DNA from: Bacilli bacterium
Lineage (GTDB): Bacteria > Bacillota_I > Bacilli_A > RFN20 > CAG-826
Reading direction: 5' to 3'
Assembly (NCBI GenBank): GCA_024695405.1
Contig: JAILIF010000108.1
Location: forward strand, 2,970 to 66,969
Length of the DNA stretch: 64,000 nt
Position numbers and translations under genes: made by a program. Each line of letters starts with the position of its first letter. Positions within the stretch are counted from its first letter, which is position 1. The notes beneath the pieces were generated by a model. It did not search any database, was not told the DNA's origin, and worked only from the letters and a program-made list of their open reading frames with translations. This document shows positions 3,715-64,000 of the stretch, in pieces.

Positions 3715-3791
3715 CTTTAACTATATATTTTTTAAACTTACTATATATACTTTTAAGTTTCTTCATATAATAAGAATATAGAGGTATTCAT

Positions 3792-6201: not shown

Positions 6202-8751
6202 ATGGAAAAAGCAAAAAGAAATACTAGATTTGACCCTATAATATTTTTACAAATAGGATTAGTTTTAATTCTTTTTGTCTTTTTGCTATTACCTTTATTC
6301 TTCATGCTTTTTAAAGTAACCGGAGATGATTTTTCTTATGTTACTAAAGATGAAATATTTTATAAAGCAATAGGTAATTCTTTACTATATTCATTAATAG
6401 GTACATTAATATCTACTGTATTAGCTACTATATGTGCTTACTTTTTAAGTAGAATTCATTTTAAAGGCAAAAAGTGGTTGGTTATCTTATTAGTTTTACC
6501 TATGTTAATTCCAACTATTTCAATAGGTTTAGGAGTTAGAACATTATTTGGTGTTAACGGATTCCTAGATAAAATGTTTGGATTAAAGTTTGATGGATTA
6601 GGATTCTTCGATCTTATTGTAGGTTCTGTAGTATTTTCTTTTCCAATTGTATTTTTACTTATCTATGATGCTTTATTGTATGAAGATAAAAGTTCTTATG
6701 ATGCCGCTAATACGTTAGGGGTATCTAGATTTAAATCATTTATTGGTATCACTCTTCCTTATCTAAGAAAGACTTTAATATCTGCTTTCTTTGCTAGTTT
6801 TACATTGATATTTGCAGATTATGGTCTTCCAATGGAAGTAGCAGGAAAAGTTAAAACTCTTCCTATGTATTTATATGAGCAAGTAATATCGCAGTTTAAA
6901 TACGGAAGAGGTGCGATTATTTCTTTAGTTTTATTAGTGCCTGCTGTTATTGCATTCGTATTTGATGTTTTATTTAAAGAAAGCAGTGATGGAGTTGCTA
7001 GATCTGAAAAGATTCGTCCTTCTAAGTTATTTAATGGTTTAGGATTAGGTGCGATTATATTTGTTGGAATATTATTAATTATTCCAATGATAGCGTTTAT
7101 TACTATATCATTTGTTAATCGTTTCCCATCGGATATGAGTTTTACATTTGATAACTATATAAATGCTTTCTCTCCTAATTCAACAATATCGATTCTTAAA
7201 TTTTTAAAGAATTCTTTAATTATTTCTTTGTTAGTTGGTTTAGTCGGTACTTCAGTAGCTTATTTATCTGCATATGTATCAACAAGAACTAAGGGAGTTG
7301 TTACTAAACCTCTACATTTGATTTCTATTGCTACTTTAGCGGTTCCTGGACTTGTTTTAGGTATTGGATATGTATTCTTATTCAAATTTACAAAAGGCTG
7401 GTTTGCGGGGACATTAGCAATATTAGTAGTGGTAAATATTATTCACTATTTCTCATCACCATACTTAATGGCGAGAAATGCTTTTGAAAAGATAGATAGA
7501 AATTATGAAACTGTTGCTGAGACACTTGGCATATCAAAGAATTCGTTATTCTTTAAAGTAATGATACCTAACTCAATTGGTACAATACTTCAAATGTTCT
7601 CTTATTTATTTATTAACAGTATGATTACTATCTCTGCTGTGAGTTTCTTATGTAATCAAAATACTACTCCTTTATCAGTAGGTATAACCATTTATGAAAA
7701 TCGAGGAGTTTGGGAAGCAGAATCTGTTATTTCAACTATTATCTTATTAATTAATTTATTAATGAAAATAGGGTTTGATTTTTTAAGTAACTACGTAACT
7801 AAAATAGGAAAAAGAAAGGTGGAAAAGGATATGGAATTAAATCGTTTTCAATTCAATGTACTAGCTTATATCGAGGAACACAATAAGCAAGTATTAACAC
7901 AACGTAGAATCGCAGATGGAGTCACTTTATCATTAGGTACTACAAATAAGATTATTAATCAATTTATAGAAGATGATTTGATTGTAATCCATAATGATAA
8001 AACCATTGAAGTAACCGAGAAAGGATATAAAGCTCTTGAACCATATAAAGTAAGAAAAGCAATTGTTATCGCTGCAGGATTTGGTTCAAGAATGGTACCT
8101 GTAACTTTAGATACACCTAAGCCATTAGTTAAAGTTAATGGAGTACGTATCATTGATACTTTATTAGATGCTTTAATTGCGAAAGGTATTGATAATATCA
8201 CAGTAGTAGTCGGATATAAGAAAGAACAATTCCAACAATTATTAGAAAAATACCCAACATTAAAGTTTATTGAAAACCCTATTTATAATGAATCTAATAA
8301 TATATCTTCTGTATACGCTGCTAAGGATATTATTGATAGATGTTATATATGTGAAGCTGACTTAGTAGTAACTAATCCTAAAGTTATTACTAAGTATCAA
8401 TATTGCTCTAACTATTTAGGAGCGTATGTTTCTGAAACAGATGACTGGTGCTTCTTTAAGAAAGGTAACTACATTAGTAAAGTATCCATTGGTGGAGAAA
8501 ACTGCTGGCATATGATTGGTATTTCTTATTGGGATGAAAAAGATTCCGCTAAGTTAAGAGAAGATATTGTTAAAGTATTTAATTCTAGAGGTGGAAAAGA
8601 AAAGTATTGGGATAACGTTCCTCTTACAGTATGTAAACATGACTTCAAAGTAGAAGTTAGAGACTGTAAGAAAAAAGACGTTACTGAAATCGATAACTTC
8701 TCTGAATTAGTAATTATCGATCCTAGTTACGCAAATTATAAAAAGCAATAA
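6202..8751 (+). CDS. Fusion protein: 12-TM ABC importer permease (two EAA-loop domains), winged-HTH domain, and LicC-family CTP:phospho-X cytidylyltransferase
   Basis: A single 849-codon open frame. Residues 1-543 form two permease halves with EAA-like loops (TLGVSRFKSFIGITLPY and TLGISKNSLFFKVMIPN). Residues from about 544 hold a MarR-like wHTH. The C-terminal roughly 230 aa align with pneumococcal LicC along their length (KAIVIAAGFGSRM..VVVGYKKEQF..YWDN..EID). An in-frame ATG at 7831 carries its own Shine-Dalgarno sequence (AAAGGTGG). Confidence 0.8.
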   Translation: MEKAKRNTRFDPIIFLQIGLVLILFVFLLLPLFFMLFKVTGDDFSYVTKDEIFYKAIGNSLLYSLIGTLISTVLATICAYFLSRIHFKGKKWLVILLVLPMLIPTISIGLGVRTLFGVNGFLDKMFGLKFDGLGFFDLIVGSVVFSFPIVFLLIYDALLYEDKSSYDAANTLGVSRFKSFIGITLPYLRKTLISAFFASFTLIFADYGLPMEVAGKVKTLPMYLYEQVISQFKYGRGAIISLVLLVPAVIAFVFDVLFKESSDGVARSEKIRPSKLFNGLGLGAIIFVGILLIIPMIAFITISFVNRFPSDMSFTFDNYINAFSPNSTISILKFLKNSLIISLLVGLVGTSVAYLSAYVSTRTKGVVTKPLHLISIATLAVPGLVLGIGYVFLFKFTKGWFAGTLAILVVVNIIHYFSSPYLMARNAFEKIDRNYETVAETLGISKNSLFFKVMIPNSIGTILQMFSYLFINSMITISAVSFLCNQNTTPLSVGITIYENRGVWEAESVISTIILLINLLMKIGFDFLSNYVTKIGKRKVEKDMELNRFQFNVLAYIEEHNKQVLTQRRIADGVTLSLGTTNKIINQFIEDDLIVIHNDKTIEVTEKGYKALEPYKVRKAIVIAAGFGSRMVPVTLDTPKPLVKVNGVRIIDTLLDALIAKGIDNITVVVGYKKEQFQQLLEKYPTLKFIENPIYNESNNISSVYAAKDIIDRCYICEADLVVTNPKVITKYQYCSNYLGAYVSETDDWCFFKKGNYISKVSIGGENCWHMIGISYWDEKDSAKLREDIVKVFNSRGGKEKYWDNVPLTVCKHDFKVEVRDCKKKDVTEIDNFSELVIIDPSYANYKKQ

Positions 8752-8762
8752 TGAAACATGTG

Positions 8763-8795
8763 ACCTTCCCGAATAAAGGAAGGTTTTTATTTTAT
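8763..8795 (+). terminator. Rho-independent terminator
   Basis: Hairpin ccttcc-cgaataaa-ggaagg followed by TTTTTATTTT. Confidence 0.6.
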
Positions 8796-8880
8796 GAGCG
8801 TTTTATTTATTTTTATTTTTCATTTGGTGATAATATCTAATTACCTACTAAAATGGTAGGCAATAAAGGAGAAGACAAAT

Positions 8881-9807
8881 ATGTTATTCAAAAACGGATA
8901 TGATTTAGTAGGGGGAACTCCATTACTAGAACTCACACACATCGAAAAAGAATTAAAGTTAAAAGCAAAATTATTTGCTAAAGTTGAATACTTCAATCCA
9001 GCAGGTTCGGTTAAAGATAGAATAGTTTTATCTATGATTAATGACGCTGAAGCAAAAGGTGTACTTAAAGAAGGCACTGTTATTATTGAACCAACTAGTG
9101 GTAATACTGGTATTGGTTTAGCTTCTATTGCAACAATGAAAGGCTATAGAGTAGTTCTTACTATGCCAGAAAGTATGTCTATTGAAAGACGTAAATTATT
9201 AAAAGCATATGGTGCTGAATTAGTCTTAACAGAAGCTAGTAAAGGTATGAAAGGTGCTATTGCTAAAGCAGAAGAACTTAATAAAGAAATTCCTAATTCA
9301 ATTATCTTAGGCCAATTTGTAAACCCAGCTAATCCAAAGGTGCACTTCGAAACAACTGGACCAGAAATTTATAAAGATTTAGATGGTAAAGTTGATGCAT
9401 TCGTTGCTGGTGTAGGAACTGGTGGAACAATTACTGGCGTTGGCAAATATATCAAATCACAAAAAGCAGATGTTAAGGTTGTCGCTGTTGAACCAGCAGC
9501 TTCACCTGTATTAAGTGAAGGTAAAGCTGGACCTCACATGATTCAAGGTATTGGTGCTGGTTTCGTTCCGGATACATTAGATACTAGTGTATATGATGAA
9601 GTTATCAAAATTGAAAATGATGATGCTTTTACATATGGTAGATTTATTGGCAAAAAAGAAGGCATCTTAGTTGGTATTTCTTCTGGTGCTGCTTTATATG
9701 CTGCAATCCAAGTTGCTAGTAGGGATGAATTTAAAGATAAAAACGTTGTAGTTTTATTGCCAGATAGTGGCGATAGATACTTATCAACAAAATTATTCGA
9801 GGAATAA
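8881..9807 (+). CDS. cysK: Cysteine synthase A (O-acetylserine sulfhydrylase)
   Basis: PLP-binding region SVKDR and the TSGNTGIGLA motif; 308 aa; Shine-Dalgarno AAGGAG upstream. Confidence 0.9.
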   Translation: MLFKNGYDLVGGTPLLELTHIEKELKLKAKLFAKVEYFNPAGSVKDRIVLSMINDAEAKGVLKEGTVIIEPTSGNTGIGLASIATMKGYRVVLTMPESMSIERRKLLKAYGAELVLTEASKGMKGAIAKAEELNKEIPNSIILGQFVNPANPKVHFETTGPEIYKDLDGKVDAFVAGVGTGGTITGVGKYIKSQKADVKVVAVEPAASPVLSEGKAGPHMIQGIGAGFVPDTLDTSVYDEVIKIENDDAFTYGRFIGKKEGILVGISSGAALYAAIQVASRDEFKDKNVVVLLPDSGDRYLSTKLFEE

Positions 9808-11063: not shown

Positions 11064-12131
11064 TTAGTTGGCTTCCTTTTTAACTGTTCTTTTAGGTTTA
11101 GATTCCTTATTTTCTTTAGCAGGTTCTTTTGATGGTTCTTTCACTTCTTTTGGCTTTTTAGGAGCTTTAGGAGTTTTAGCATTTGCTGCTGCAAATAAGT
11201 TCATTTGTTCTACTTGCTTTTCTGTAGGCTTGCCAGCAGTTGTTTTCTTACTATAGTCTGATGAGAAAGTATAAGACTCTAATTTCTTTGCTTGTTCTAC
11301 ACTTCTGTTTTCTCTTTCTTCTCTCTTATTAATATCAGAGATATAAATAACGATAGATGATGTTAATAATGAAACAATAATAATTCCATAGAATCCAATG
11401 ATAACTGAAAGGATTCTACCTGTAGTGGTTGTAACAGTAAGATCGCCAAATCCAGTAGTGGTAATTAAAGCGAAACAATACCACCATGCGTCTCCTGCAT
11501 CTTTAATTGAATCCTCGACGTGAGGAAGAATGAATGAAGTAAGTAATAGGATGATAAATAAACCAAAGAAGATATCTAAACCATGAACTCTATTAAGTGC
11601 TTTGCCTAAATCTGTAATAGAGATAACTTTCTTAACAAACATATTAGAAACTAAGTTAGCTAAACCTTTATATAAAACTAAGCATCCTAATATAACGTTT
11701 GTAGCAATATCTGATTCTTGTCCGCTGAACATTAAGAAGATAAATAGGACACAGATAATGTTTTCCATTCCGAAGAATGATTCTGTTCTATTAGATTTTC
11801 TATAAATAATTGCTTTTGCGATATTTGCAAGAACATCCGCAACACAAGAAGCGCCTACAACATATGCCATCTTGCTAGGGTCTGCGTTGAAGATAATCAT
11901 TAAGATTATGATGATGCCGTGTAATGAACCGTGAATTATCGTGTAGAGTAAGGATGATTCATATGCGAAATACTTAATAACAACTAATCCGACTTTAATT
12001 AAGAAGAATACAATCATGACCCACATGATGTAGTCTTGTAAGATTTCAATTTTCAATGTGACGATGAAACCTACGATAACTAGAAGTGATGCTAATACAA
12101 TCTCTAAAATGCCATGTAAATTTTTATTCAT
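11064..12131 (-). CDS. Potassium channel protein (2TM/pore type) with a Lys/Pro-rich cytoplasmic tail
   Basis: Selectivity-filter signature TTTGFGD; several TM helices; about 90 C-terminal residues of KPK/PKxP-rich low-complexity sequence; Shine-Dalgarno AGGAGAA. Confidence 0.8.
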   Translation of the reverse strand: MNKNLHGILEIVLASLLVIVGFIVTLKIEILQDYIMWVMIVFFLIKVGLVVIKYFAYESSLLYTIIHGSLHGIIIILMIIFNADPSKMAYVVGASCVADVLANIAKAIIYRKSNRTESFFGMENIICVLFIFLMFSGQESDIATNVILGCLVLYKGLANLVSNMFVKKVISITDLGKALNRVHGLDIFFGLFIILLLTSFILPHVEDSIKDAGDAWWYCFALITTTGFGDLTVTTTTGRILSVIIGFYGIIIVSLLTSSIVIYISDINKREERENRSVEQAKKLESYTFSSDYSKKTTAGKPTEKQVEQMNLFAAANAKTPKAPKKPKEVKEPSKEPAKENKESKPKRTVKKEAN

Positions 12132-12247
12132 GATGATTCTCCTTGAAGTGGGAAAGTTTTTGAGAAATTGACTATTTTTGTCAACAACTCCCTTATTTTA
12201 ATTGATTTTTGTATAACAACAATTATTTTTTTATAAATTTTAGTGAA

Positions 12248-12283
12248 TTTTTCAAAAATCGACCCATTTAAATAAGTAAGGAG
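12248..12283 (+). promoter_or_regulatory. Repeat family copy A (TTTTTCAAAAA-TCGACCCATTTAAATAAGTAAGGAG): putative -10 plus Shine-Dalgarno module
   Basis: Near-identical to copy B at 12577-12613; related copies at 35604, 43806 and 63902. Confidence 0.45.
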
Positions 12284-12576
12284 TATTTAAAATTTTTTAA
12301 TATACTAACCTATTAAGATTTAAAAATGGTAAAAAAGAGAAGAAAGTCTTCCTACGCGAGAAGATATAGTAAACCTTTATTAAGAGGGAAATTTTATAAA
12401 GTAAGCGATAAAAATGGAGGGCATTATTCGAGGTTATATAAAAAGAATACAAAAGAAAAAAATGAGCTACACGCGCCTTTAACAGCCCAATGTGCTTACT
12501 CACAAAATTATTAAAACAAAATCGTTTGTTACATTCAAGAAAGTATATTTAATATTTTTTTAAAATTTTTGCACAA

Positions 12577-12613
12577 TTTTCAAAAAATCGACCCATTTAA
12601 ATAAGTAAGGGGG
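12577..12613 (+). promoter_or_regulatory. Repeat family copy B
   Basis: TTTTCAAAAAATCGACCCATTTAAATAAGTAAGGGGG; an ATG follows 11 nt later (41-codon ORF 12625-12750). Confidence 0.45.
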
Positions 12614-12890
12614 TTTGTAACCTTATGAACCTTGAGAAACTTCTCTCAGTCCCCGCAATCTCTTTACGAGAAAGGATGTTAAATTTTAGTGGTAGTAATA
12701 CTGTTAAAGTTTGTACTCATCGTAGTTTTGTTGTTAATGATACTGGGTAACTGGTAACTAAAAAAGCCTGGGAGGCATGTCTCCTAGGCCCTAAAGACAA
12801 CTTTATTATACATGCGTGTTTGGCGGAAGGAAAGCACAACCTTCAAGTTGAAGGGGACTGCCTTCGTATTGATAAATAGTGAGGAAAATT

Positions 12891-13358
12891 ATGAAATCAT
12901 ATCAGCAACTTTATAGATACGCTAAACAGCTAGCGTTGAAGTGGAAACATACTGCTTCGAAAATTAAAGAAAAATTATTATTAAAAGGAGCATCTTCTAT
13001 TGAGATAGACAAAATAATTTTTTCTTTAATTAATGATAAAGTCCTAGACGATAACAAATGTTTCGAGCTAGATGTATTTGCTATGGAAGAAAAAAGATAT
13101 GGGTATAAAAGAATAAAAGAATATCTATGTAAGAAGGGATATGGTAGAGAACTCTTAGATAAGTATATTTTTAATAAAGATATAGAAAAAGATAATTGTT
13201 ATTATCACTTTTTTAAAGGAAGCAAAAAATATAAAAACTACAAATATAGTGATGTAGAAAGAGAAAAATTAATTAATTATCTAAAAAGAAATGGGTTTAA
13301 TGATACAATAATAACCGAAGTTATTAAAGTAGGTATTAAATATGAAGATGTTATGTGA
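12891..13358 (+). CDS. recX: Regulatory protein RecX
   Basis: RecX-type helical repeats; ATG at 12891 with GAGGA 7 nt upstream (track start 12879 is a GTG); 155 aa. Confidence 0.65.
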   Translation: MKSYQQLYRYAKQLALKWKHTASKIKEKLLLKGASSIEIDKIIFSLINDKVLDDNKCFELDVFAMEEKRYGYKRIKEYLCKKGYGRELLDKYIFNKDIEKDNCYYHFFKGSKKYKNYKYSDVEREKLINYLKRNGFNDTIITEVIKVGIKYEDVM

Positions 13359-14268
13359 ATACAAAGATGGTGAACACATCACTGGCCAGTTTCTCGTTTC
13401 TAATGTTTCTAAAGGAACAAACGCAAATGGTGGACAATATCTTAATGTAGAACTTAGAGATGCTTCTGCTAGTATGAACGCTAAAAAGTGGGAAGTGGCT
13501 AGTAAAGATGAAGAAATAGTTGTCTCTGGTAATGTAATTTATATTGATGGTGAAGTTTTAAAATATAAAGAATCTCTTCAAATTAAATTATTAAACGTAA
13601 GAGCGGTTGATTTAGATGAAATTGATCCTACTAAATTTTTAAAACAACCCCCAATACCAAAAGAAGAACTCATAAAGAAATTTAATAAATATGTAGATGA
13701 AGTAGAAAACGAAGACTGTAAAAAGATATTGAATTATTTTATTAATAAATATAATAATCAAATTTACGATTATCCGGCCGCTAGCAGCATTCATCATGAA
13801 TATATGAGCGGATTACTCGTTCACTGCACTACAATGGCTGAAATCGCCGAAAAACTATGTGAAATCTATCCTGTTAATAAAGACTTGGTTATAACTTCGG
13901 TATTATTACACGATATTGGCAAGATTACTGAATTAGAAGGACCGATAGTGTATAAATATTCACTTAAAGGAAAACTTATTGGCCATATTTCAATTATGGC
14001 AGCAGAAATTGATGAAGCCGCCAAAGAATTAGGACTTACTAGTGAAACTCCATTATTGTTGCAACATGCAATTTTATCTCATCATGGACAACTAGAATAT
14101 GGTTCTCCAGTTCTACCTGAAACTGCAGAAGCTCTTATGCTTTCTTTAGTAGATAACTTAGATTCTAAAATGGTTATTACATTAAAAGCATTAGAAGAGA
14201 CTAAAGATGGGGAATTCACAAATAAAGTGTATCCTCTAGATGGAAGAACATTTTATAAGCACAAATAA
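13342..14268 (+). CDS. yhaM: 3'-5' exoribonuclease YhaM (OB-fold plus HD domain)
   Basis: N-terminal OB-fold, then an HD domain (HHEYMSGLLVHC...LLHDIGK); 308 aa. Confidence 0.85.
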   Translation: MKMLCEYKDGEHITGQFLVSNVSKGTNANGGQYLNVELRDASASMNAKKWEVASKDEEIVVSGNVIYIDGEVLKYKESLQIKLLNVRAVDLDEIDPTKFLKQPPIPKEELIKKFNKYVDEVENEDCKKILNYFINKYNNQIYDYPAASSIHHEYMSGLLVHCTTMAEIAEKLCEIYPVNKDLVITSVLLHDIGKITELEGPIVYKYSLKGKLIGHISIMAAEIDEAAKELGLTSETPLLLQHAILSHHGQLEYGSPVLPETAEALMLSLVDNLDSKMVITLKALEETKDGEFTNKVYPLDGRTFYKHK

Positions 14269-26546: not shown

Positions 26547-26690
26547 ATAATATATACGCTTCAGGGCAGCGAAAAGCGACCGGCGGTATACCCCGCGAGC
26601 CAAAAATGGCAGGAACTTGTTAGATTCAAGTGGCGACAGTAAAGTCTGGATGAAAGAAGTACTTTTTTAGGCCTTGGGAAAGGTCTATTT
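26547..26690 (+). ncRNA. FMN riboswitch (RFN element)
   Basis: CTTCAGGGCAGCGAAAAGCGACCGGCGGTATACCCCGCGAGCC...GTTAGATTCAAGTGGCGACAGTAAAGTCTGGATGAAAGAAG matches RFN-element conserved blocks. It is followed by a hairpin aggcctt-ggga-aaggtct plus a T-run that covers the GGGAAAGG Shine-Dalgarno sequence. Confidence 0.9.
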
Positions 26691-26693
26691 TTT

Positions 26694-27464
26694 ATGAAAA
26701 AAGAAAGAAGAACGGTCAAAGAATCGATCACAAGAATTACGACCCTTGCCATGCTAGCCGCGTTAGGTTATGTCCTAATGGCATTCGTCAAGTTTCCTTA
26801 TCCACCAGCTCCATGGCTTAAGGTTGAAATCAGTGAGCTCGTTACTATTATTGCTTATGCATTATATGGTTTCCCTGGTGGACTCACTATTGCGTTAATC
26901 AAAACATTGCTTAACTTAGTAACAAACGGGGCATCAGGATTAGGTATTGGTGATATTACCGCTTTTATTACATCCTGCATGTTCTTGTTAGGCTTATTTG
27001 TCACAAGCCATCTTAAATGGTTTAAAAAAGGTCTAAAGTTTAGAATTATTTCTTATGTGGTTATCGGCGCAATTGTAGCGGTGGTTATGACTACATTAAA
27101 TGCTATAGTAATTACTCCAAGTTATTTAACTGTATTTGGTCCTAATCCTCATTTTTCTACATGTTTTGAAGATGGCGCTATTCAAAAAACAATCGCATAT
27201 TTAACTAAGAGCGAAGATCCATCTTCAAGCGTTTTGAACTACATTTGGGTTATTACTTACATATATGGACCATTTAACTTAATGAAAGCAGCGATTTGCT
27301 GTGCGCTCTATGAGTTGTTATTTAATAGATTAATCTTTGTTTTTATGAGAAAATCACCATTTTTCCAAAAATGGTTCGTTGGCAATATATTTACTAAAAA
27401 GGTAGAGGAGCCAAAAGAAGATGATAACAAAGAAATCGTTGAAGCAGAGGAAGAAAAAAACTAG
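26694..27464 (+). CDS. ribU: Riboflavin transporter (ECF S-component RibU/FmnP-like)
   Basis: Polytopic membrane protein directly downstream of the FMN riboswitch; 256 aa with a charged C-terminal tail. Confidence 0.75.
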   Translation: MKKERRTVKESITRITTLAMLAALGYVLMAFVKFPYPPAPWLKVEISELVTIIAYALYGFPGGLTIALIKTLLNLVTNGASGLGIGDITAFITSCMFLLGLFVTSHLKWFKKGLKFRIISYVVIGAIVAVVMTTLNAIVITPSYLTVFGPNPHFSTCFEDGAIQKTIAYLTKSEDPSSSVLNYIWVITYIYGPFNLMKAAICCALYELLFNRLIFVFMRKSPFFQKWFVGNIFTKKVEEPKEDDNKEIVEAEEEKN

Positions 27465-34142: not shown

Positions 34143-34478
34143 CATTCGACCTAGACAATTGCTGCCGTAAGGTAGAGGAAAGTCCATGCTCGCACAGGCT
34201 GTGATGCCTGTAGTGATTGCGCCAGTCCAATAAATAAGGCTGGGTACGTAGGAGTACGTAACGGCGGAGTAAGACCTAAAGGAAACCATGGTGGAGCTCC
34301 TGAAAGTGCCACAGTGACGAAGCTTTATGGAAACATAAAGGTGGAACGCGGTAAACCCCACAAGCGAGAAATCCAAATTTGGTAGGAGAGATTGGGAAGG
34401 GAAACGAACTAGTCCCAATAAGCTTTGCTTAGATAAATAATTGTCCTCGACAAAACATGGCTTACAGGGTCGAATACT
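34143..34478 (+). ncRNA. rnpB: RNase P RNA, type B (Bacillus-type)
   Basis: GAGGAAAGTCCATGCTCGCAC, AAAGTGCCACAGTGACGAAG, GGAACGCGGTAAACCCC, CAAGCGAGAAA, ACATGGCTTACAGGGTCGAAT; P1 pairs attcgacc with ggtcgaat. Confidence 0.93.
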
Positions 34479-35581: not shown

Positions 35582-35603
35582 TTGCAAAAAATTTTAAAAA
35601 AAT

Positions 35604-35635
35604 TAAAAAAATGACCCATTTAAATAAGTAAGAGG
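35604..35635 (+). promoter_or_regulatory. Repeat family copy C (recA leader)
   Basis: AAAAAAATGACCCATTTAAATAAGTAAGAGG, 7 nt before the recA ATG. Confidence 0.45.
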
Positions 35636-35642
35636 TATTTTT

Positions 35643-36641
35643 ATGGCAAAAGAACTAAAAGACGAAAACCTAGCCGCTCTAAATGATGCGTTAAAAGAGA
35701 TTGAACGCGTTTTTGGCAAAGGCGCAGTGATGAAATTAGGAGAACGTCCATCTGTAGATATGGATGTTATTCCTAGCGGTTCCTTACTTATTGATGGAGC
35801 GTTAGGTGTTGGCGGTTATCCAAAGGGCCGTATCATTGAAATCTTTGGACCAGAAAGCAGTGGTAAAACTACTTTAGCATTGCATGCTATTGCTGAATGT
35901 CAAAAAGCAGGAGGTAGAGCAGCTTTTATTGACGCTGAGCACTCTATTGATCCTATCTACGCTAAAAATTTAGGAGTCAATGTTGATGAACTAATCCTTT
36001 CTCAACCTGATTGTGGTGAACAAGCACTAGAAATTGTTGAAATGCTTGCAGAAAGTGGTGCATTTGACCTAATTATCGTAGACTCAGTCGCAGCACTTGT
36101 CCCTCAAGCAGAACTTGATGGAGAGATGACTGATTCTTCTGTTGGCTTACAAGCTAGACTTATGTCTAAAGCAATGAGAAAACTTGCTGGAATTTTAAAT
36201 AGAAAGTCAGTAGCAGTTATCTTTATTAATCAATTAAGAGAAAAAGTTGGTGTTATTTATGGCAATCCAGAAACTACAACTGGTGGACGTGCGCTAAAAT
36301 TCTACGCGACTATTAGAATCGATATTAGAAGAAGCGAAGCTATTAAAGACGGTGGAGAGATTATTGGCAACTCATGCAAAGTTAAGATTGTTAAGAACAA
36401 AGTAAGTCCACCATTTAAGACATGTGACATAGATATTATCTATGGAAAAGGTGTGTGTAAAGAAGCGGAAATTCTAGATAAAGCAGTTGAACTTGCTATT
36501 GTTAGACGTGCAGGTGCATGGTATGAGTATGATGGAGTAAAAATTGCTCAAGGAAGAGAATCTGCAAAGGCTTATTTAATCGATAATCCTGAGAAATGTA
36601 ATGAGATTTTTGAAAAGATAAAATCCGCTCCTAAAATCTAA
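35643..36641 (+). CDS. recA: Recombinase RecA
   Basis: [10 protein letters not shown]-loop and the canonical RecA core; 332 aa. Confidence 0.97.
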
Positions 36642-43781: not shown

Positions 43782-43805
43782 AAAAGTTAAGAAATTTTAG
43801 CAAAT

Positions 43806-43841
43806 TTTTCAAAAAATGGCCCTCTATATAAGTATAGGGGG
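43806..43841 (+). promoter_or_regulatory. Repeat family copy D (ABC transporter leader)
   Basis: TTTTTCAAAAAATGGCCCTCTATATAAGTATAGGGGG. The ccctctata/tataggggg arms can pair with one G-U and would bury the Shine-Dalgarno sequence. Confidence 0.45.
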
Positions 43842-43848
43842 TTTTATT

Positions 43849-45897
43849 ATGAGTTTAATACAAGTCTTAAACCTGACTAAGACCTATAAAATATCTGGAA
43901 AGAAAGTAGACGTCTTGAAAGATATCAATTTAACTCTGCCAGAAAGTGGTTTAGTCGTAATTTTAGGAAAATCTGGTTCAGGTAAGTCTACATTGCTAAA
44001 TATAGTGGGAGGAATTGATAATTCCACGTCGGGAGCCGTAATTTTTTCTTCAATGAAGAAACACAGTAAAAATTCTAATTTTGAGAAGAGTTTTATATTT
44101 CAACATTATCATTTGTTAGAAAATCAGACTGCTTTATATAACATTATGCTTCCAGCTCTAATTCGAGGGTATGACAAAAAGTTTGCCGAAACCCAATCTA
44201 AGGAATTAATAAAACTTTTCTCACTGGATGAAAGCGTTGTTAATAAAGTGGTTAGGTTTTTATCAGGCGGAGAAAAAGAAAGAATTGCAATCTTACGTTC
44301 TTTAATAACAAATCCAAGATTAATATTAGCTGATGAGCCAACAGGAGCACTTGATAAAGATAACGCAATTAAGACGATGAATATTCTTAAAAACGCGAGT
44401 AAGAAAAGGCTTGTTCTTTTAGTCACACATAATAGAGATTTAGCAAAGCAATATGCTGATAGAATTATTACTCTTTTAGATGGGAAAATTATTGATGATC
44501 AGACATACAAAAATAATAAAGAAGAAGTGTACATAGATAGTATTCAAAAAAGACGCAAAAACCATTGGTCAATAAACATCATTAACCACAATTTTAAAAA
44601 AAGAATTAAAAGGAATATTGTTTCGATAATCGGAATGACAATTTCTTTAGTTTTCTGCTATTTGCTATTTGGGTTTTCTACACATTCAAATGATGCAATT
44701 AATAAGGTTTCTACAAAACATTTTGATTATGGGACTGGTACTATAAGCAAAGAATTTAGAACTGAATCCGATTCATCTATAACTTTGGTAAAAACATTAA
44801 GACCAGAAGAAAACGAATTAGATGATATAAAAACCAAATTTCCAATGTTTGAATTTATGGCAAATTATGACGCTATTTTTAACTCAGGAGAATTATATAT
44901 TGGAAATGAAGTGAACAAAGAAATAAGGAATTCTTTTATTTATGATTTTACTGATAAAAGCTTCGATAAGAATTTAATAGTTTCTGGTGCAATCAATAAT
45001 GAGTGTTCTTGGAATGATATTGTGGTTAATGAAAAAGCATTTAATATAATCCAAAATAACGATATTCATTATAAATTTTCTTATGAAAATAAAATTGAGC
45101 AGACGAATTCTTCTTTTATAGTTGATTATTTTGATGTAGAAGAAAAACTGAATATTGTTGCAGTTGTGGATGAATTAGATTTTTTGTCGGTTCCTAAAAT
45201 TTATTTTAACTATCAAGAAATAGATGAAATATTCGAAAACAAAGAATTAGAAAACCTATCTGATAAGTCAGGAAAAGAAATAAATTGGAAACAATACATT
45301 ATGGAAGCTAATTCCTATGATGATATTACTTCATATTCTTTGAGATGCTTTTTGGTGGATATTTCAAAAAAAGAAAAAGTCGATGAGCTATTAAAATATT
45401 TATCAAATGAAATAAAACTAACTAACGATAGCTTAACAATTAAAGAAGCTCTAGCGTCATTAACGTTGGCCGCTACTGTAGGGCTTGATGTATTTTTGAT
45501 TATTGCTCTAGTCGGTAGCGTGCTTATTTTGGGAGTATTTTCATTTTCTGCCTATAATGACGATAAGAAGGAATCATCTATCTTAAGTTGTTTAGGAGCT
45601 AAAGATAGTGAAGTAGTCGGGATTTTTACAAGTGAGAGCCTGATAGTTGTATTTTTGGCTTTCCTTTTTTCAACTGTATTTTCTTGGATCCTTCAAAAGC
45701 CAATTAATTTACTTTTAGATGCTTTATTAGATGTTCCAAATCTTATCGATATTCCAATTAAATCTTTTTTAGGAATTAAAGGATTGCTTCCTCTTGCGGT
45801 TTTATCAATTTCAATAATAGTGGCTTTAGCTTTTACTTCAATTCCTATTTTTATTAATAAAAAGATTTCTCTTAAAAAGGAGCTTACTGACTTATGA
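43849..45897 (+). CDS. ABC transporter, fused ATP-binding and FtsX-like permease (MacB-type)
   Basis: ATG 43849 is 8 nt after the AGGGGG Shine-Dalgarno sequence. N-terminal ATPase (GKSGSGKST, LSGGEKERIAILR, LILADEPTGALD); TM1, a roughly 290-aa extracytoplasmic domain, then 3 C-terminal TM helices. Confidence 0.8.
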   Translation: MSLIQVLNLTKTYKISGKKVDVLKDINLTLPESGLVVILGKSGSGKSTLLNIVGGIDNSTSGAVIFSSMKKHSKNSNFEKSFIFQHYHLLENQTALYNIMLPALIRGYDKKFAETQSKELIKLFSLDESVVNKVVRFLSGGEKERIAILRSLITNPRLILADEPTGALDKDNAIKTMNILKNASKKRLVLLVTHNRDLAKQYADRIITLLDGKIIDDQTYKNNKEEVYIDSIQKRRKNHWSINIINHNFKKRIKRNIVSIIGMTISLVFCYLLFGFSTHSNDAINKVSTKHFDYGTGTISKEFRTESDSSITLVKTLRPEENELDDIKTKFPMFEFMANYDAIFNSGELYIGNEVNKEIRNSFIYDFTDKSFDKNLIVSGAINNECSWNDIVVNEKAFNIIQNNDIHYKFSYENKIEQTNSSFIVDYFDVEEKLNIVAVVDELDFLSVPKIYFNYQEIDEIFENKELENLSDKSGKEINWKQYIMEANSYDDITSYSLRCFLVDISKKEKVDELLKYLSNEIKLTNDSLTIKEALASLTLAATVGLDVFLIIALVGSVLILGVFSFSAYNDDKKESSILSCLGAKDSEVVGIFTSESLIVVFLAFLFSTVFSWILQKPINLLLDALLDVPNLIDIPIKSFLGIKGLLPLAVLSISIIVALAFTSIPIFINKKISLKKELTDL

Positions 45898-48689
45898 TCG
45901 ATATTAAAGATTTAGGAATAAAATTTGAAGATAAAGTAGTATTAGATAACGTAAATATAAAGTTTCCAAGAAGTGGATTGATTTGCATTTGTGGCGAATC
46001 TGGTAGTGGAAAAACATCTTTAGTGAATGCAATTTCTTCTTTAATAGATTTCAAAGGTAGCATTAGTTTTGATGGATTAAGAATTGAAGAATTAAATGAC
46101 AAAGAAGGTGCAAATTTTAGAATTAAAAATATTGGATTTATCTTCCAAGACTTTAAGTTATTTGATAATCAGACTGTAGAGAAAAATGTAACTTTTCCTC
46201 TCAGCGTGCTTTCAAATTGTTCTGATGTTAAAAAAACACACAAGTGTAATGAATTACTTGCTCTTTGTAATTTAGAAAACTATAACAAACGAATTTGTAA
46301 AAATCTTTCAGGCGGAGAAAAACAAAGAGTAGCCATTTGTAGAGCTCTTATTAATAACCCAAAGCTAATTATCGCTGATGAACCAACAGGCTCTTTAGAC
46401 GAAAATAATGGTGAAGAAATATTGGTTTTATTAAAGAAATTTTCAACAAAATCACTTGTTTTAATGGTTACACATGACTTAGACCTAGCTAGAAAATACG
46501 CCGATAAGATTGTGTTTATCAAAAATAAACAATTAGTTGTGGAAGAGAATAATAAAATTATTGAAGATTATAAACCATTAATTATTTCTAACAAAGAAAA
46601 GCAAAAGAAGAAATCTTCTGTACCTTTTATGTTTGCGATTAATCACGCTAAGCAAAGTATGAAAGCAAAAAAGATTAGAAGCGTTCTAAGTACCATGTTT
46701 ATGTCTATGGGACTTATGGGAATTGGCTTATCAATATCTTTTTCTAATTCAATTTCAAACGACTTAAAACGCTCTTATAGCAATCTTATTGAAACAGCGT
46801 CTATTTCTATTTGTAAACAGCAAGATAAAACAGAAAGAATTAAAAATGTTACCTATGACGATACTAAATATTTATTAGATACCTATGATGAAGATAATCA
46901 ATATGAATGTGGTGTTGGTTATTTGAATAACTTCGAAGAAATGTTTAAGGATTGTAATATGTTCTATCTAGAAAGTGGGTCTAAAACATATTTTATTGAT
47001 GATCTTTCGATTAGACACATTAATGACGCTGTGACTGTAAAAGTTAACGATAATTCTTTCTTGCCTGCACCTTTAAAAAAGATGGAAGATGATGAAATAT
47101 GTTTAGGATTAACTATTTATCAAATTAGAAGTATCTGTATGGTTTTTGGTATTGAAAAAAGTGTTAATTCATTTTCTTCGTATTTAGAAAGTAATGATGT
47201 AAAGGTAGTAATTGAAGCGGGTAATGTAGATTGGGAATATTCAGATCAGCAAGTATTCACTTTAGTTGGGTTTGCCTTATCTACTGAGCCATATATTGCC
47301 CATACAAATAGAATGTTTAACAAAATCGTTTTGGAAGATAATATGAGGTTTCCATCAACTGATAGTCACGATTTAAAGGAATTTCCGTGGGTATTAAATA
47401 AGATAACCTACATTTCTACTGAAAATAATTATGATTTTTTAAAGTTTGCAAGAGAGAAAGAACTTACAGATAAATACATGTTTGAAGTTTGCGATAAGAA
47501 CTTATTTGTGAATCAACTATTAGATAAAGAAGCGTGCGACATAAATTATCTAATTCCCTACTATGCGCCTAAGACTCAATTAACAGATAAAGAAATCGAA
47601 TATATTAGTTCTGTTAGTGAAGATTTAAATAATCCGATTGTTTATAACAGTGGTGGTTATGTGAATTATCCAAATAATCTTATTTCTGGATTTGCTAATA
47701 GAACATATTTCTCTTTGTCAGAATATTCTCTACTTGAAACAACCGAAAATAATGCCTCAATTGAATTTGGCACTAATGAAAAGGAAGATTTGAAGCCCGG
47801 AGTACTTTATTCAAATTTTTCGAATAATTTCGCTAATCCTGTTAAGTTTGATTCGAATTTAACAAATATATCTTCAGGTAGAGAACCAATTGATTTGGAC
47901 GAGATTGTTGTTTCATCAGGTTTATTGGAAAACCTTAAAACAGAATATACGAACTCAGAGTTTCTCTATTTATCTACTGCGATAAAAGAAATAAATAAAC
48001 GAATAGGTATTTTTAATAGGGAATATGTAACAACAAAACTAAAAATTGTTGGCGTTGTCGAAAATGAGAAAAACTGTATTTACCATAATGCTTATTGGAC
48101 ACAAGATTATTTCTTATTACAAGATGGCTTGAAAGCAGAAAGCTTAGTTCCAACGTCTATTTCATTTTCTATAGGAGAAGATATTGATATAGATAGTTTA
48201 ATCGCGAAACTTAAAAGAGCGTTTCCTCAATACGAAATTGTTAATCCTCTTTTAGAGATAAATAAAAGTGTAGATCAATTATGCAACGCAATTTCTATTT
48301 TTATATTATGCATTTCGTTTGTCTCGTTAGTTATTTCTTTAATTTTGCTTTCTTCATGTACTTATCTTCATATTCAAGACATAAAAAAAGAAATTGCATT
48401 AGCAAGATGTATAGGAATTAATGTGGATGAATCGATGAAATTTTTATACAGCTATACCAGTTATTCTTCGTTATTTGCGTTAATTGTTGCGTGTGCCGAA
48501 TTAACAATGGTTAATTTAGCAATATTAAAACTTTCTTCTGATGTTTTATCTCTTCCTTTTAAATTCTCTGCTAGTTTTTTAGCATATGTAGTAATGTCTG
48601 TTGCATGTGTTTTAATATGTTTAGTTTCTTCTTGGATTAGTGCTAAACACATTAGAAAAATTAAACCAATTGATTGCCTTAAAATATAA
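45894..48689 (+). CDS. ABC transporter, fused ATP-binding and FtsX-like permease with a large extracytoplasmic domain (931 aa)
   Basis: ATPase (GESGSGKTS, LSGGEKQRVAICR, LIIADEPTGSLD); TM1 near aa 255; a roughly 540-aa extracellular domain; 3 C-terminal TM helices; start overlaps the upstream gene (ATGA). Confidence 0.8.
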   Translation: MIDIKDLGIKFEDKVVLDNVNIKFPRSGLICICGESGSGKTSLVNAISSLIDFKGSISFDGLRIEELNDKEGANFRIKNIGFIFQDFKLFDNQTVEKNVTFPLSVLSNCSDVKKTHKCNELLALCNLENYNKRICKNLSGGEKQRVAICRALINNPKLIIADEPTGSLDENNGEEILVLLKKFSTKSLVLMVTHDLDLARKYADKIVFIKNKQLVVEENNKIIEDYKPLIISNKEKQKKKSSVPFMFAINHAKQSMKAKKIRSVLSTMFMSMGLMGIGLSISFSNSISNDLKRSYSNLIETASISICKQQDKTERIKNVTYDDTKYLLDTYDEDNQYECGVGYLNNFEEMFKDCNMFYLESGSKTYFIDDLSIRHINDAVTVKVNDNSFLPAPLKKMEDDEICLGLTIYQIRSICMVFGIEKSVNSFSSYLESNDVKVVIEAGNVDWEYSDQQVFTLVGFALSTEPYIAHTNRMFNKIVLEDNMRFPSTDSHDLKEFPWVLNKITYISTENNYDFLKFAREKELTDKYMFEVCDKNLFVNQLLDKEACDINYLIPYYAPKTQLTDKEIEYISSVSEDLNNPIVYNSGGYVNYPNNLISGFANRTYFSLSEYSLLETTENNASIEFGTNEKEDLKPGVLYSNFSNNFANPVKFDSNLTNISSGREPIDLDEIVVSSGLLENLKTEYTNSEFLYLSTAIKEINKRIGIFNREYVTTKLKIVGVVENEKNCIYHNAYWTQDYFLLQDGLKAESLVPTSISFSIGEDIDIDSLIAKLKRAFPQYEIVNPLLEINKSVDQLCNAISIFILCISFVSLVISLILLSSCTYLHIQDIKKEIALARCIGINVDESMKFLYSYTSYSSLFALIVACAELTMVNLAILKLSSDVLSLPFKFSASFLAYVVMSVACVLICLVSSWISAKHIRKIKPIDCLKI

Positions 48690-53364: not shown

Positions 53365-53439
53365 TGGCTGGGGTGACTGGGATCGAACCAGTGAATGGTG
53401 AATTCAGAGTCCACTGCCTTACCGCTTGGCTACACCCCA
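53365..53439 (-). tRNA. tRNA-Gln (anticodon CUG), CCA encoded
   Basis: Reverse complement TGGGGTGTAGCCAAGCGGTAAGGCAGTGGACTCTGAATTCACCATTCACTGGTTCGATCCCAGTCACCCCAGCCA folds as a cloverleaf; the anticodon loop CTCTGAA gives CUG; closely matches Bacillus tRNA-Gln. Confidence 0.9.
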
Positions 53440-55563: not shown

Positions 55564-55669
55564 GGAAGGATTAATAGTCCTTCTTTTTAACAATATGCAA
55601 AATTTGCATTTTTTATTGTGAGAAATATTTTAGATTAATATAATAATATTATTGGCGAGGGAATTTATA

Positions 55670-56863
55670 ATGAATTTAAAAGAAACACGCAAAAAATGCA
55701 AATTAACTCAAGAAGAAGCATCTAAAATTGTTGGCGTTCCACTCAGAACATATGTTCAATATGAAGGCGACGAAACAAAAGCAGATACTTTAAAACTTGA
55801 AAGAATGATTGAAAGATTAGAAGAATACGCAAGCAAAGATACTTCTATTCTTAAAGACAAAGTCTTATTAATTACTGGTGGTACAGGTTCATTCGGCCAT
55901 GCAGTTGTTGATAGATTTCTAGATACTGAAATTAAAGAAATCAGAATTCTTTCTCGTGACGAAAAGAAACAAGACGACATGAGAAAGTACTATAACAATG
56001 AGAAATTAAAATTCTACATTGGTGATATTAGAAACTATGATTCTATTGTTGATGCTTTTAAAGGCGTTGACTATGTTTTCTCCGCAGCTGCTTTAAAGCA
56101 AGTTCCATCTTGTGAATTCTATCCAATGGAAGCTGTAAGAACTAACGTCATCGGTAGTGATAATGTAATTACTGCTTGCGTTAGAAATGGTGTTAAAAAA
56201 GCTATCTTCTTATCTACTGATAAAGCAGCATATCCAATTAACGCTATGGGTATTTCTAAAGCTTTAATGGAGAAGAATGTTATTGCTAGAAGTAGACAAC
56301 TTTTACCAGGAGATACAGTTTTATGTTTAACTCGTTATGGTAATGTTATGGCTTCTAGAGGTAGTGTTATCCCTCTTTTCTTAAATCAAATTCATGATGG
56401 TAAGCCAATTACTATTACTAATCCAGAAATGACTAGATTCATGATGACTCTTGATGACGCTGTTGATTTAGTCTTATATGCTTTTGAAAATGGTGAACAA
56501 GGTGATTTATTCGTTCAAAAGGCACCTGCTGCAACAATTGAAACATTAGCTCAAGCAGTTATCGAATTAACAAATAGTAAAACAGGTATTGATTATATCG
56601 GTACTAGACATGGTGAAAAACTCTACGAAACTTTAGTCACTCAAGAAGAAATGATTAGAGCAGTTGATTGTGGCAATTTCTATAGAATTGTCGCTGATAA
56701 TAGAGATTTAAACTACGACAAATACTTCTCAAAAGGTAACAAAAAATTAAACTTCTCAGAATCTTATACATCACATAATACTGGTAGACTTGATGTTGAG
56801 GGTATGAAAAAACTTCTCAAAAAGTTAGAATTATTTGGTGGGGAAGTTAGACAACATGATTAA
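55670..56863 (+). CDS. fnlA: UDP-N-acetylglucosamine 4,6-dehydratase/5-epimerase (FnlA/CapE) with N-terminal XRE-type HTH
   Basis: ATG 55670 is 8 nt after GAGGG (the track TTG at 55652 is unlikely). Residues 1-50 read LKETRKKCKLTQEEASKIVGVPLRTYVQYEG, an XRE helix-turn-helix. The remainder aligns with CapE from KVLLITGGTGSFG onward. Confidence 0.8.
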   Translation: MNLKETRKKCKLTQEEASKIVGVPLRTYVQYEGDETKADTLKLERMIERLEEYASKDTSILKDKVLLITGGTGSFGHAVVDRFLDTEIKEIRILSRDEKKQDDMRKYYNNEKLKFYIGDIRNYDSIVDAFKGVDYVFSAAALKQVPSCEFYPMEAVRTNVIGSDNVITACVRNGVKKAIFLSTDKAAYPINAMGISKALMEKNVIARSRQLLPGDTVLCLTRYGNVMASRGSVIPLFLNQIHDGKPITITNPEMTRFMMTLDDAVDLVLYAFENGEQGDLFVQKAPAATIETLAQAVIELTNSKTGIDYIGTRHGEKLYETLVTQEEMIRAVDCGNFYRIVADNRDLNYDKYFSKGNKKLNFSESYTSHNTGRLDVEGMKKLLKKLELFGGEVRQHD

Positions 56864-63893: not shown

Positions 63894-63901
63894 TTAAAAA
63901 A

Positions 63902-63947
63902 TTTTTCAATTTTCTGAAAACACCCCCTCTATATAATTGAGGAGGTT
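63902..63947 (+). promoter_or_regulatory. Repeat family copy E
   Basis: TTTTTCAATTTTCTGAAAACACCCCCTCTATATAATTGAGGAGG with a TATAAT box. An ATG at 63954 opens an ORF that runs off the window (MNGYKIIKFRDNEF...). Confidence 0.45.
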
Positions 63948-64000
63948 TTTTCTATGAATGGTTATAAAATAATAAAATTTAGAGATAATGAATTTTAGCT

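Follow-up and report, generated by a model that had tools for sequence, protein, structure and literature searches.

The question raised here is what occupies the gap between two divergent genes in a 64,000-nucleotide stretch of the genome of a Bacilli bacterium (GenBank assembly GCA_024695405.1, contig JAILIF010000108.1, positions 2,970 to 66,969), referred to below as the window. The gap (12132-12890) separates an ion-channel-like membrane gene on the minus strand from a recX-like open reading frame (ORF) on the plus strand, behind which lies yhaM. A sequence-only reading had found no recognisable protein-coding content in the gap and had taken its repeat pair, two small ORFs and hairpins for an attenuator, riboregulator or small-protein locus controlling recX-yhaM. 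Its observations were confirmed in parts but had been mis-assembled; a decayed gene makes up half of the gap. Comparison with relatives showed the gap to be a composite of insertions into a short recX promoter region, not a single leader. One inserted piece was shown to be a small basic-protein gene, now decayed, and the other a self-contained conserved plus-strand RNA of approximately 270 nt that contains the 41-codon ORF and both hairpins. The reading preferred for this RNA, at a probability of roughly 0.45, takes it for a translation-locked small-ORF RNA whose build resembles that of a type I toxin mRNA or a dual-function small RNA (sRNA), and which here is also the leader of recX-yhaM. Coordinates of all features are collected in Table 1.

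Two metagenome-assembled genomes (MAGs) named 'Bacilli bacterium' and having the same neighbourhood were used for comparison, L001 (yak omasum) and L002 (horse faeces); their YhaM proteins are 86% and 80% identical, respectively, to that of the window. In L002 the ion-channel gene and recX lie approximately 100 bp apart, with one copy of a shared upstream element directly 5' of the recX AUG. L001 has an intact 143-aa ORF (8967-9398) between two copies of the element, the second of which is directly 5' of recX. The window and L001 align in three blocks (12054-12460 with 8730-9175, 12431-12612 with 9367-9543, and 12861-12949 with 9521-9608), and approximately 248 bp of the window (12613-12860) are missing from both L001 and L002. 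Each of the two inserted pieces follows a copy of the upstream element. The recX-proximal element reads TATAGATAAGTAGGAGGAAAATTATG in L001 and TTGATAAATAGTGAGGAAAATTATG in the window.

The 62-codon ORF had been regarded as a leader-type small ORF in non-coding DNA. It proved instead to be a gene remnant, the recognisable 5' part of a conserved gene for a basic protein of 118-143 aa, of which the 143-aa ORF of L001 is an intact homologue. Window positions 12431-12460 align to both 9146-9175 and 9367-9396 of L001, which places a deletion junction inside that segment; approximately 215 bp were lost internally, and codon ~44 is now joined to the old 3' untranslated region (UTR). Residues 9-37 are the sole part that aligns to the basic-protein family, with 72% identity to residues 11-39 of P0026. 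Because the alignment is partial and approximately 215 bp are deleted, the ORF was classed as a pseudogene. The family comprises 28 clusters, typically of 118-120 aa, all from similar MAGs or metagenomes. No match to it was found in Pfam, NCBIfam, PHROG or PADLOC, nor any relative among viral contigs, and the AlphaFold model (predicted local distance difference test score, pLDDT, 47.6) was too poor for a fold search. Since the gene was found in several unrelated neighbourhoods, it was judged to be a small accessory gene. In the relative L056 (7002-8676) it lies upstream of two unknown small genes, followed by genes for a ComFA-like helicase and a ComFC-like phosphoribosyltransferase, both of competence type. 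The stretch past its stop codon, GAGCTACACGCGCCTTTAACAGCCCAATGTGCTTACTCACAAA (window 12463-12510; L001 9396-9445), is conserved across genomes and becomes part of the protein where the stop has been lost (P0037, P0040). A structured 3' UTR is one possibility.

Copies of the second inserted piece were recovered by scanning metagenome contigs with a degenerate motif of the upstream element. Of the 37 matches most were due to chance in unrelated DNA, four contigs carried the element together with the 41-codon ORF, and a fifth carried the element before recA. Aligned with the window, conservation spans the element, the ORF, both hairpins and the invariant GGGGACUGCCUU. The ORF and the hairpins, previously treated as separate parts, are thus one conserved unit. 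A covariance model (R1) built from 12 distinct copies gave full-length matches of 259-314 bits in all of these, 13 distinct copies being matched in total, with a single match in the window. L001 and L002 gave no match. Nor does the window contain a second copy of the insert (12600-12880), and no copy of the RNA 3' domain was found in viral contigs. The suggested search of the gap against Rfam matched no family. Rfam 15 at the gathering threshold returned only RNase P, FMN and tRNA elsewhere in the window; 12050-12950 at E<=10 gave only chance matches (15.8-23.1 bits, against gathering thresholds of 60-100), and four other RNA copies at E<=1 gave nothing within the element. The RNA family itself is new, of a broadly known kind.

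The 12 copies were folded using RNAalifold, with pairing partners slid by 1-3 columns and 500 shuffles as controls. Nine helices were predicted. In the predicted structure 95.4% of cells were paired, 13 pairs were changed on both sides and the covariation score was 0.239, versus 41-51%, 0-3 pairs and 0.06-0.08 in the slid controls; the observed pairing values were reached by none of the 500 shuffles. The best-supported features were P4, P5, P6, hairpin 2 and a pseudoknot of the hairpin 1 loop. P4 joins CAGUCCCC (ORF codons 8-10, 12647-12654) to GGGGACUG (12853-12860), and in divergent copies CACCCUCC to GGAGGGUG. Through P4 and P5, codons 8-15 of the ORF are predicted to pair with the 3' end of the RNA. 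One pair of the P6 hairpin (12686-12707) is split among the copies, with G-C in six and A-U in six. Hairpin 1 was mis-aligned by MAFFT, and its stems were judged by folding each copy; it folds in all copies, with at least six different stems among the 12. Its loop sequence GCAUG (12775-12779) forms the predicted pseudoknot with CAUGC (12811-12815), and other copies have UCGUA:UACGA and ACAUG:CAUGU, with both sides changed at three of five positions. Hairpin 2 occurs in four stem variants, with compensatory CCUCAA/UUGAGG, CCCUC/GAGGG and CUUCAG/CUGAGG.

Both hairpins and the local rise in G+C (0.40-0.44 at 12700-12850, versus 0.16-0.30 in the flanks) had been described correctly, and in relatives the hairpins proved to be conserved with compensatory changes. 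The proposal thereby passed the test of hairpin conservation that it had set for itself. That the gap is non-functional debris of duplication and gene decay, with chance hairpins, is tenable only for 12235-12514, where the pseudogene and copy A of the element, with its degenerate hairpin, really are debris. For 12588-12867 it is contradicted, as this unit has the same length and fold in copies diverging at approximately 25% of positions, with many compensatory changes.

The plus strand is favoured as the strand of the RNA. The folding energy of the window sequence is -77.2 kcal/mol (z=-2.48) for the plus strand versus -58.6 kcal/mol (z=-1.40) for the minus strand, the fold of the single sequence recovers P1-P4, P6, P7 and both hairpins, and the minus strand would have A.C mismatches in place of the invariant or recurrent G.U pairs of P6 and the two hairpins. 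Each of the 12 copies has an A-run directly 5' of hairpin 1 and an invariant ATTATA 15 nt 3' of it, so that the minus strand reads as TATAAT, a hairpin (-8.5 to -14.8 kcal/mol) and a run of 4-7 U. From these signals an antisense RNA of approximately 40 nt may be encoded opposite hairpin 1. A further alternative is that the minus strand is the functional one, as a short antisense RNA or as a terminator for convergent genes, and that plus-strand conservation is secondary. The conserved U-run and the invariant TATAAT would fit, as would the convergent gene for an iron-type alcohol dehydrogenase (Fe-ADH) that ends just past the element in L037, L046 and L050. This alternative was considered very unlikely. 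The minus-strand fold is 19 kcal/mol worse and loses the G.U pairs, the long-range helices and pseudoknot span 260 nt, far beyond a 40-nt antisense RNA, and the window has no convergent gene. An antisense ORF across the 41-codon ORF was also considered and rejected; it is open in L007 and L037a and interrupted in the window, L025 and L037b.

Protein searches with the 41-codon ORF gave 17 protein clusters, most of exactly 41 aa, and further copies of the RNA were taken from the contigs of these clusters. A Shine-Dalgarno (SD) sequence, GGGGG, lies 4-11 nt 5' of the AUG, which is itself invariant in a loop of variable length and sequence. Changes at codon positions 1, 2 and 3 number 29, 33 and 14 over the whole ORF, and the pairwise ratio of nonsynonymous to synonymous substitution rates (dN/dS) is 0.9-7.4, mostly above 1.3. 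In codons 22-41, the least structured stretch, 18 of 20 codons in the window are NNT (P~6e-6); across copies the changes there number 13, 17 and 2 (P=0.0035), with the third-position T nearly invariant. This periodicity follows the phase of the ORF and suggests that the reading frame matters. NNU codons cannot become stops by a change at the first or second position; the pattern looks like that of a frame preserved for translation whose amino acids drift or diversify.

The same data were weighed for a purely noncoding, trans-acting structured RNA in which the ORF is accidental and never translated. Compensatory pairs inside the ORF (P4, P5, P6) indicate constraint at the RNA level, helices enclose both the SD and the AUG, and dN/dS is above 1 with the fewest changes at third positions; the openness of the ORF can be explained by chance, and three members have lost the stop. 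It is nevertheless an unlikely explanation, given the strict 3-nt periodicity in the ORF phase within the least structured part, the fixed position of the AUG behind a strong SD in an otherwise variable loop, and the lack of any insertion or deletion in the 123 nt of the ORF while these occur in the flanks.

Copies of the RNA stand in four gene contexts, and their 3' flanks differ among the contexts. The RNA forms a tandem pair in L037 and L045, and a pair flanks the ADH gene in L050-52. From the four contexts and the tandem and double copies, the RNA was taken to be an element in its own right, present in low copy number and separate from recX. The double copies lie at 1283-3145 in L050 (also in L051 and L052, where they flank an inverted Fe-ADH gene beside a TIR-domain gene), 1263-1885 in L037 and 5959-6440 in L045, which suggests that they take part in local rearrangements. 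PADLOC gave only weak TIR/ThsB-like matches for the 479-aa neighbour and nothing for the 41-aa peptide, the 145-aa neighbour or the 334-aa neighbour.

A scan of 11900-13100 found no plus-strand terminator, hence none between the structured RNA and recX. In this genome the RNA is therefore physically part of the recX leader, and transcripts would run on into recX-yhaM, so that the RNA would double here as their 5' leader. The proposal of an attenuator, riboregulator or small-protein locus for recX-yhaM stands to the extent that a conserved structured RNA with a small ORF lies directly upstream. It fails as a recX-specific attenuator, because in L001 and L002 recX is directly behind the element without the RNA, and the RNA precedes unrelated genes or none; nor was a terminator/antiterminator pair found before recX. 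The interpretation is thus partly supported: the RNA before recX is novel, structured and carries a small ORF, but it is an inserted, independent element.

A broader version of the same idea is a cis-regulatory leader that controls whatever genes lie behind it, namely recX-yhaM, the 145-aa gene with pcrA-ligA, or the TIR-domain gene. For example, the 3' CCUU might have two alternative partners, the 5' AAGG of the RNA itself (P1) and the SD downstream, the choice depending on translation of the small ORF. In three of four contexts the RNA is followed at a distance of 20-120 nt by the start of a co-directional gene, uninterrupted by a plus-strand terminator, and as read from the window the CCUU (12861-12864) is complementary to the recX SD GAGG, 17 nt downstream. 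RecX overexpression could plausibly be harmful, and the downstream genes may generally be of this sort. Such a riboregulator is possible but doubtful. Copies L037b, L046 and L050a run into the end of the convergent Fe-ADH gene, L037a and L045a precede a second copy of the RNA, recX (L001, L002) and the TIR gene (L046) also occur without the RNA, and neither a ligand-pocket-like nor a terminator/antiterminator architecture was found. Leader-peptide attenuators and ribosome-dependent leaders (trp, erm, cat and bmrB types) likewise have a short ORF and alternative pairings before an operon, and here translation would melt P4 and P5. They differ in that the window has no terminator before the downstream gene, the ORF of 41 codons is long and has no regulatory codon run, and the RNA is found in places with no gene downstream of it and is missing before recX in relatives.

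The upstream element that precedes both inserted pieces corresponds to the repeat pair seen at the outset. The direct repeat was confirmed (12224-12300 against 12553-12629, 78% identity across 77 nt), with an exact 27-nt core, AAAATCGACCCATTTAAATAAGTAAGG, at 12255 and 12584, for which 0 matches were expected from shuffles. It had been taken for a local feature; three further copies occur in the window, one of them directly before recA, and it is an element shared by several genes. A 20-nt core of copies A and B, GACCCATTTAAATAAGTAAG, recurs identically at 35613-35632, ten bases 5' of the recA start codon. An nhmmer search of the window with a profile built from eleven instances added two copies (43792-43840 and 63897-63945). 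From 5' to 3' the element consists of an A/T-rich block AAATTTT-N4-AATTTTTCAAAAAAT, a C-tract, an AT-rich loop (TTAAATAAGTA or TATATAAGTA), a G-rich SD and a U-run, with the AUG 4-11 nt past the U-run. Two genomes, those of the window and of the relative L038, have it before recA, and two have it before recX; it also heads every structured-RNA copy on other contigs. The exact 20-nt core had 0 matches in the GTDB species genomes.

The C-tract can pair with the SD, at a predicted -6.7 kcal/mol in copy B and most strongly at 43818-43843 (-13.5 kcal/mol, z=-2.83, 11 pairs), where the hairpin was flagged as a terminator. As a universal feature of the element this hairpin was weakened by its near-zero stability in copy A and the recA copy. 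Because its strength varies among copies, the primary sequence is the common denominator of the element. At the ABC-transporter copy (43792-43852) an 11-bp hairpin is followed by a U-run and its 3' arm is the SD; the ABC genes lie at 43850-45897 and 45894-48689. This hairpin could double as the fhs terminator and the ribosome site of the next gene. In the distant relative L056 (4912-4950) an intrinsic terminator (CCCCUA-loop-UAGGGG plus a U-run, -12.4 kcal/mol) occupies the position of the element 5' of the basic-protein gene, without the A/T-rich block. At 63897-63999, at the window end, the weaker copy is followed by the 14-codon ORF MNGYKIIKFRDNEF.

A sigma-70 scan gave no convincing promoter in or near the element. 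The remaining promoters of the window resemble the ordinary sigma-70 type, and the element thus appears to mark a special class of genes. Two manual promoter models stand, one with a -10 at CAAAAAAT and the start at the C-tract, and the other with a -10-like box in the loop and the start in the G-tract. A likeness of AATTTTCAAAAAATC to the CodY box (AATTTTCWGAAAATT) was considered and rejected as not above chance (22 matches versus 23.6 expected). No LexA (Cheo) box, CGAAC-N4-GTTCG, was present in the element or near recA or recX, and a Cheo-box scan of the window gave five matches, versus eight expected by chance, none of them intergenic. The best of these, a Cheo-like near-perfect palindrome AGAACATATGTTCA (55745-55758), is inside a coding region and is probably due to chance; the gene, at 55652-56863, encodes a CapD-like polysaccharide biosynthesis protein with an N-terminal HTH_3 domain.

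We infer that the element is a shared regulated promoter or 5' end of a regulon rich in recombination genes. In Bacillus subtilis pcrA-ligA is reportedly controlled by LexA. The LexA regulon of B. subtilis thus overlaps with the genes linked to the element (recA, recX-yhaM) or to the RNA (pcrA-ligA), and yhaM is SOS-regulated in that species (PMC2731908). This overlap suggests a DNA-damage or recombination regulon, possibly headed by the element and independent of LexA. Firmicutes LexA operators would be shared in the same way before recA and recX-yhaM and, via the RNA, pcrA-ligA; the element differs from them in having no GAAC-N4-GTTC, in its length of approximately 50 nt, in including the SD, and in also preceding an ABC transporter.

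For the translation-locked small-ORF RNA the following mechanism is proposed. In the default state the ribosome site would be sequestered, either by P1 and P2 or by the C-tract upstream. P1 and P2, which are paired in 89-90% of cells, contain the SD, and the loop of P2 contains the AUG. To translate the ORF the ribosome would have to melt P4 and P5, so that the 3' domain would be remodelled. Hairpin 1 may be the target of a short antisense RNA, for which the conserved TATAAT and terminator of the minus strand would provide the start and end signals.

Type I toxin mRNAs have been defined by two descriptors, an anti-SD at short range and a long-distance interaction between the 5' and 3' parts (PMC8594479; PMC6733600). 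As in hok/Sok, aapA1/IsoA1, tisB/istR-1 and fst/RNAII, the RNA has a small ORF (<60 codons) in a highly folded transcript, an SD that might be sequestered by a nearby anti-SD (here the C-tract) and by a predicted 5'-3' long-distance interaction, a location in variable regions, several copies per genome, some in tandem, and possibly a short convergent antisense RNA. The type I systems tisB, dinQ and symE are SOS-controlled, which the upstream element common to the RNA and recA recalls. With regard to the SD descriptor, the supported 5'-3' helices P4 and P5 involve ORF codons 8-15, and the SD-covering P1 and P2 are not the helices with compensatory change. Nearly all type I toxins are hydrophobic, which this peptide is not; further differences are the lack of a 3' terminator stem-loop, the lack of a sequence or Rfam match, dN/dS above 1 and the fixed NNU codons. 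Membership of the type I family is not claimed, as the hydrophobic peptide and 3' terminator are missing and an antitoxin is unproven. Dual-function sRNAs (B. subtilis SR1/SR1P, 39 aa, and SR7/SR7P; SgrS/SgrT; RNAIII) resemble the RNA in being structured and of approximately 200-300 nt, with a non-hydrophobic ORF of approximately 40 codons, in a genome of Firmicutes type. SR1P is strongly conserved as a protein (PMC3526287). In comparison, the peptide here varies freely, and the RNA has no terminator of its own and no homology to these sRNAs.

Several results weigh against the translation-locked RNA. Purifying selection on the peptide was not seen across the copies, third positions changing least and nonsynonymous changes being in excess. 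The openness of the ORF is statistically unremarkable (P=0.10-0.38), and its stop codon is lost in three family members. In eight members the peptides are not hydrophobic, with a grand average of hydropathy (GRAVY) of -0.58 to 0.30 and a best 15-residue window of <=1.13. P1 and P2, the helices over the SD, show no compensatory changes. The anti-SD role of the C-tract would require the C-tract to be in the transcript, which only one of the two start models may provide for, and the C-tract/SD hairpin is nearly nil in copy A (-1.5 kcal/mol) and in the recA copy (-2.4 kcal/mol). With no plus-strand terminator after the window RNA in the 11900-13100 scan, its 3' end is undefined. Finally, an ABC transporter among the element-headed genes is a poor fit to a pure DNA-damage set.

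Table 1. Features of the recX-yhaM upstream gap, of the structured RNA and of the upstream element (window coordinates unless contigs are named)
Feature	Position	Strand	Remarks
Ion-channel-like membrane gene	11064-12131	-	Pfam Ion_trans_2
Element copy A	12235-12283	+	AAATTTT-N4-AATTTTTCAAAAAT, C-tract, loop TTAAATAAGTA, SD-like AAGGAG; nhmmer 42.2 bits, E=1e-11; precedes pseudogene
Pseudogene ("62-codon basic ORF")	12326-12514	+	first ~43 codons of conserved 118-143-aa basic protein, then former 3' UTR from 12463
Element copy B	12564-12613	+	C-tract GACCC, loop ATTTAAATAAGTAA, SD GGGGG; nhmmer 43.6 bits; directly 5' of structured RNA and ORF
Conserved structured RNA, ~270 nt	12588-12867	+	covariance model 301.7 bits
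41-codon ORF	12625-12750	+	MNLEKLLSVPAISLRERMLNFSGSNTVKVCTHRSFVVNDTG; embedded in structured RNA
Helix P1	12605-12610:12861-12866		
Helix P2	12611-12616:12627-12632		AUG in loop
Helix P3	12634-12637:12642-12645		
Helix P4	12647-12654:12853-12860		
Helix P5	12661-12667:12825-12831		
Helix P6	12686-12694:12699-12707		
Helix P7	12741-12746:12751-12756		
Candidate ~40-nt antisense RNA	12760-12810	-	TATAAT (complement of 12805-12810), 15 nt, hairpin 1, U-run (complement of A-run 12760-12765)
Hairpin 1	12766-12789	+	DNA GCCTGGGAG-GCATGT-CTCCTAGGC; RNA GCCUGGGAG-GCAUGU-CUCCUAGGC
Hairpin 2	12840-12854	+	CCUUC-AAGUU-GAAGG; flanks invariant GAAAGCACAAC (12830-12840), GGGGACUGCCUU (12853-12864)
Ancestral recX upstream element, 3' half remnant	12868-12890	+	GATAAATAGTGAGG (12871-12884); includes recX SD
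recX-like ORF	12891-13358	+	sub-cutoff RecX model matches
yhaM	13342-14268	+	HD plus OB fold; overlaps recX-like ORF
Element copy at recA	35588-35635	+	recA ATG at 35643; pgsA-cinA-recA-rny context
Element copy at ABC transporter	43792-43840	+	nhmmer 32.6 bits; precedes two fused ABC ATPase-FtsX permease genes (Pfam)
Weaker element copy	63897-63945	+	nhmmer 21.6 bits; hairpin -9.1 kcal/mol; precedes 14-codon ORF at window end
RNA context: before 145-aa gene, then pcrA, ligA	L007, L025, L040-42, L055		
RNA context: before TIR-domain gene	L043, L050-54		
RNA context: convergent with Fe-ADH gene	L037, L045, L046, L050		no co-directional gene downstream
RNA context: before recX	window only		

Of the two genes named downstream of the gap, yhaM was confirmed by its domains, and recX was matched over its full length but weakly. 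Ten NCBIfam RecX models matched near full length (best E=9e-9), all under their curated cutoffs, and Pfam RecX_HTH1 scored 21.7 bits against a cutoff of 26. The whole-window Rfam scan located an FMN riboswitch (26553-26665, 74.4 bits) preceding the gene at 26694, an RNase P RNA of class B (34147-34469, 272 bits) and a tRNA-Gln(CTG) (53365-53439). A 13-mer, AGAATATAGAGGT, lies directly 5' of the start codons of two unrelated genes (1289-1313 and 3767-3791) and may be another shared 5' signal.

A practical caution is that intergenic 'gaps' can be stacked decayed and inserted cassettes rather than single regulatory regions. Taken at its widest, and held only tentatively, the finding would be a new family of large structured RNAs from uncultured gut and rumen Bacilli, placed in a non-LexA recA/recX/pcrA regulon by a novel element of approximately 50 nt. 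Its 'stop-proof' (NNU)n ORF, with the amino acids diversifying while the frame is kept, would then be a new diversifying small-peptide/RNA module (toxin, signal or sensor) outside the described toxin-antitoxin, riboswitch and sRNA classes. If the structure is confirmed, the RNA would be a covariation-supported family new to Rfam, for which the covariance model R1 is ready for metagenome mining. The element, if confirmed, would be a candidate cis-element that co-regulates recA, recX and pcrA in reduced-genome Bacilli without a visible LexA box. An invariant third-position U together with variable first and second positions, if confirmed in turn, could mark ORFs that are selected for translation and not for sequence, or peptides that diversify.

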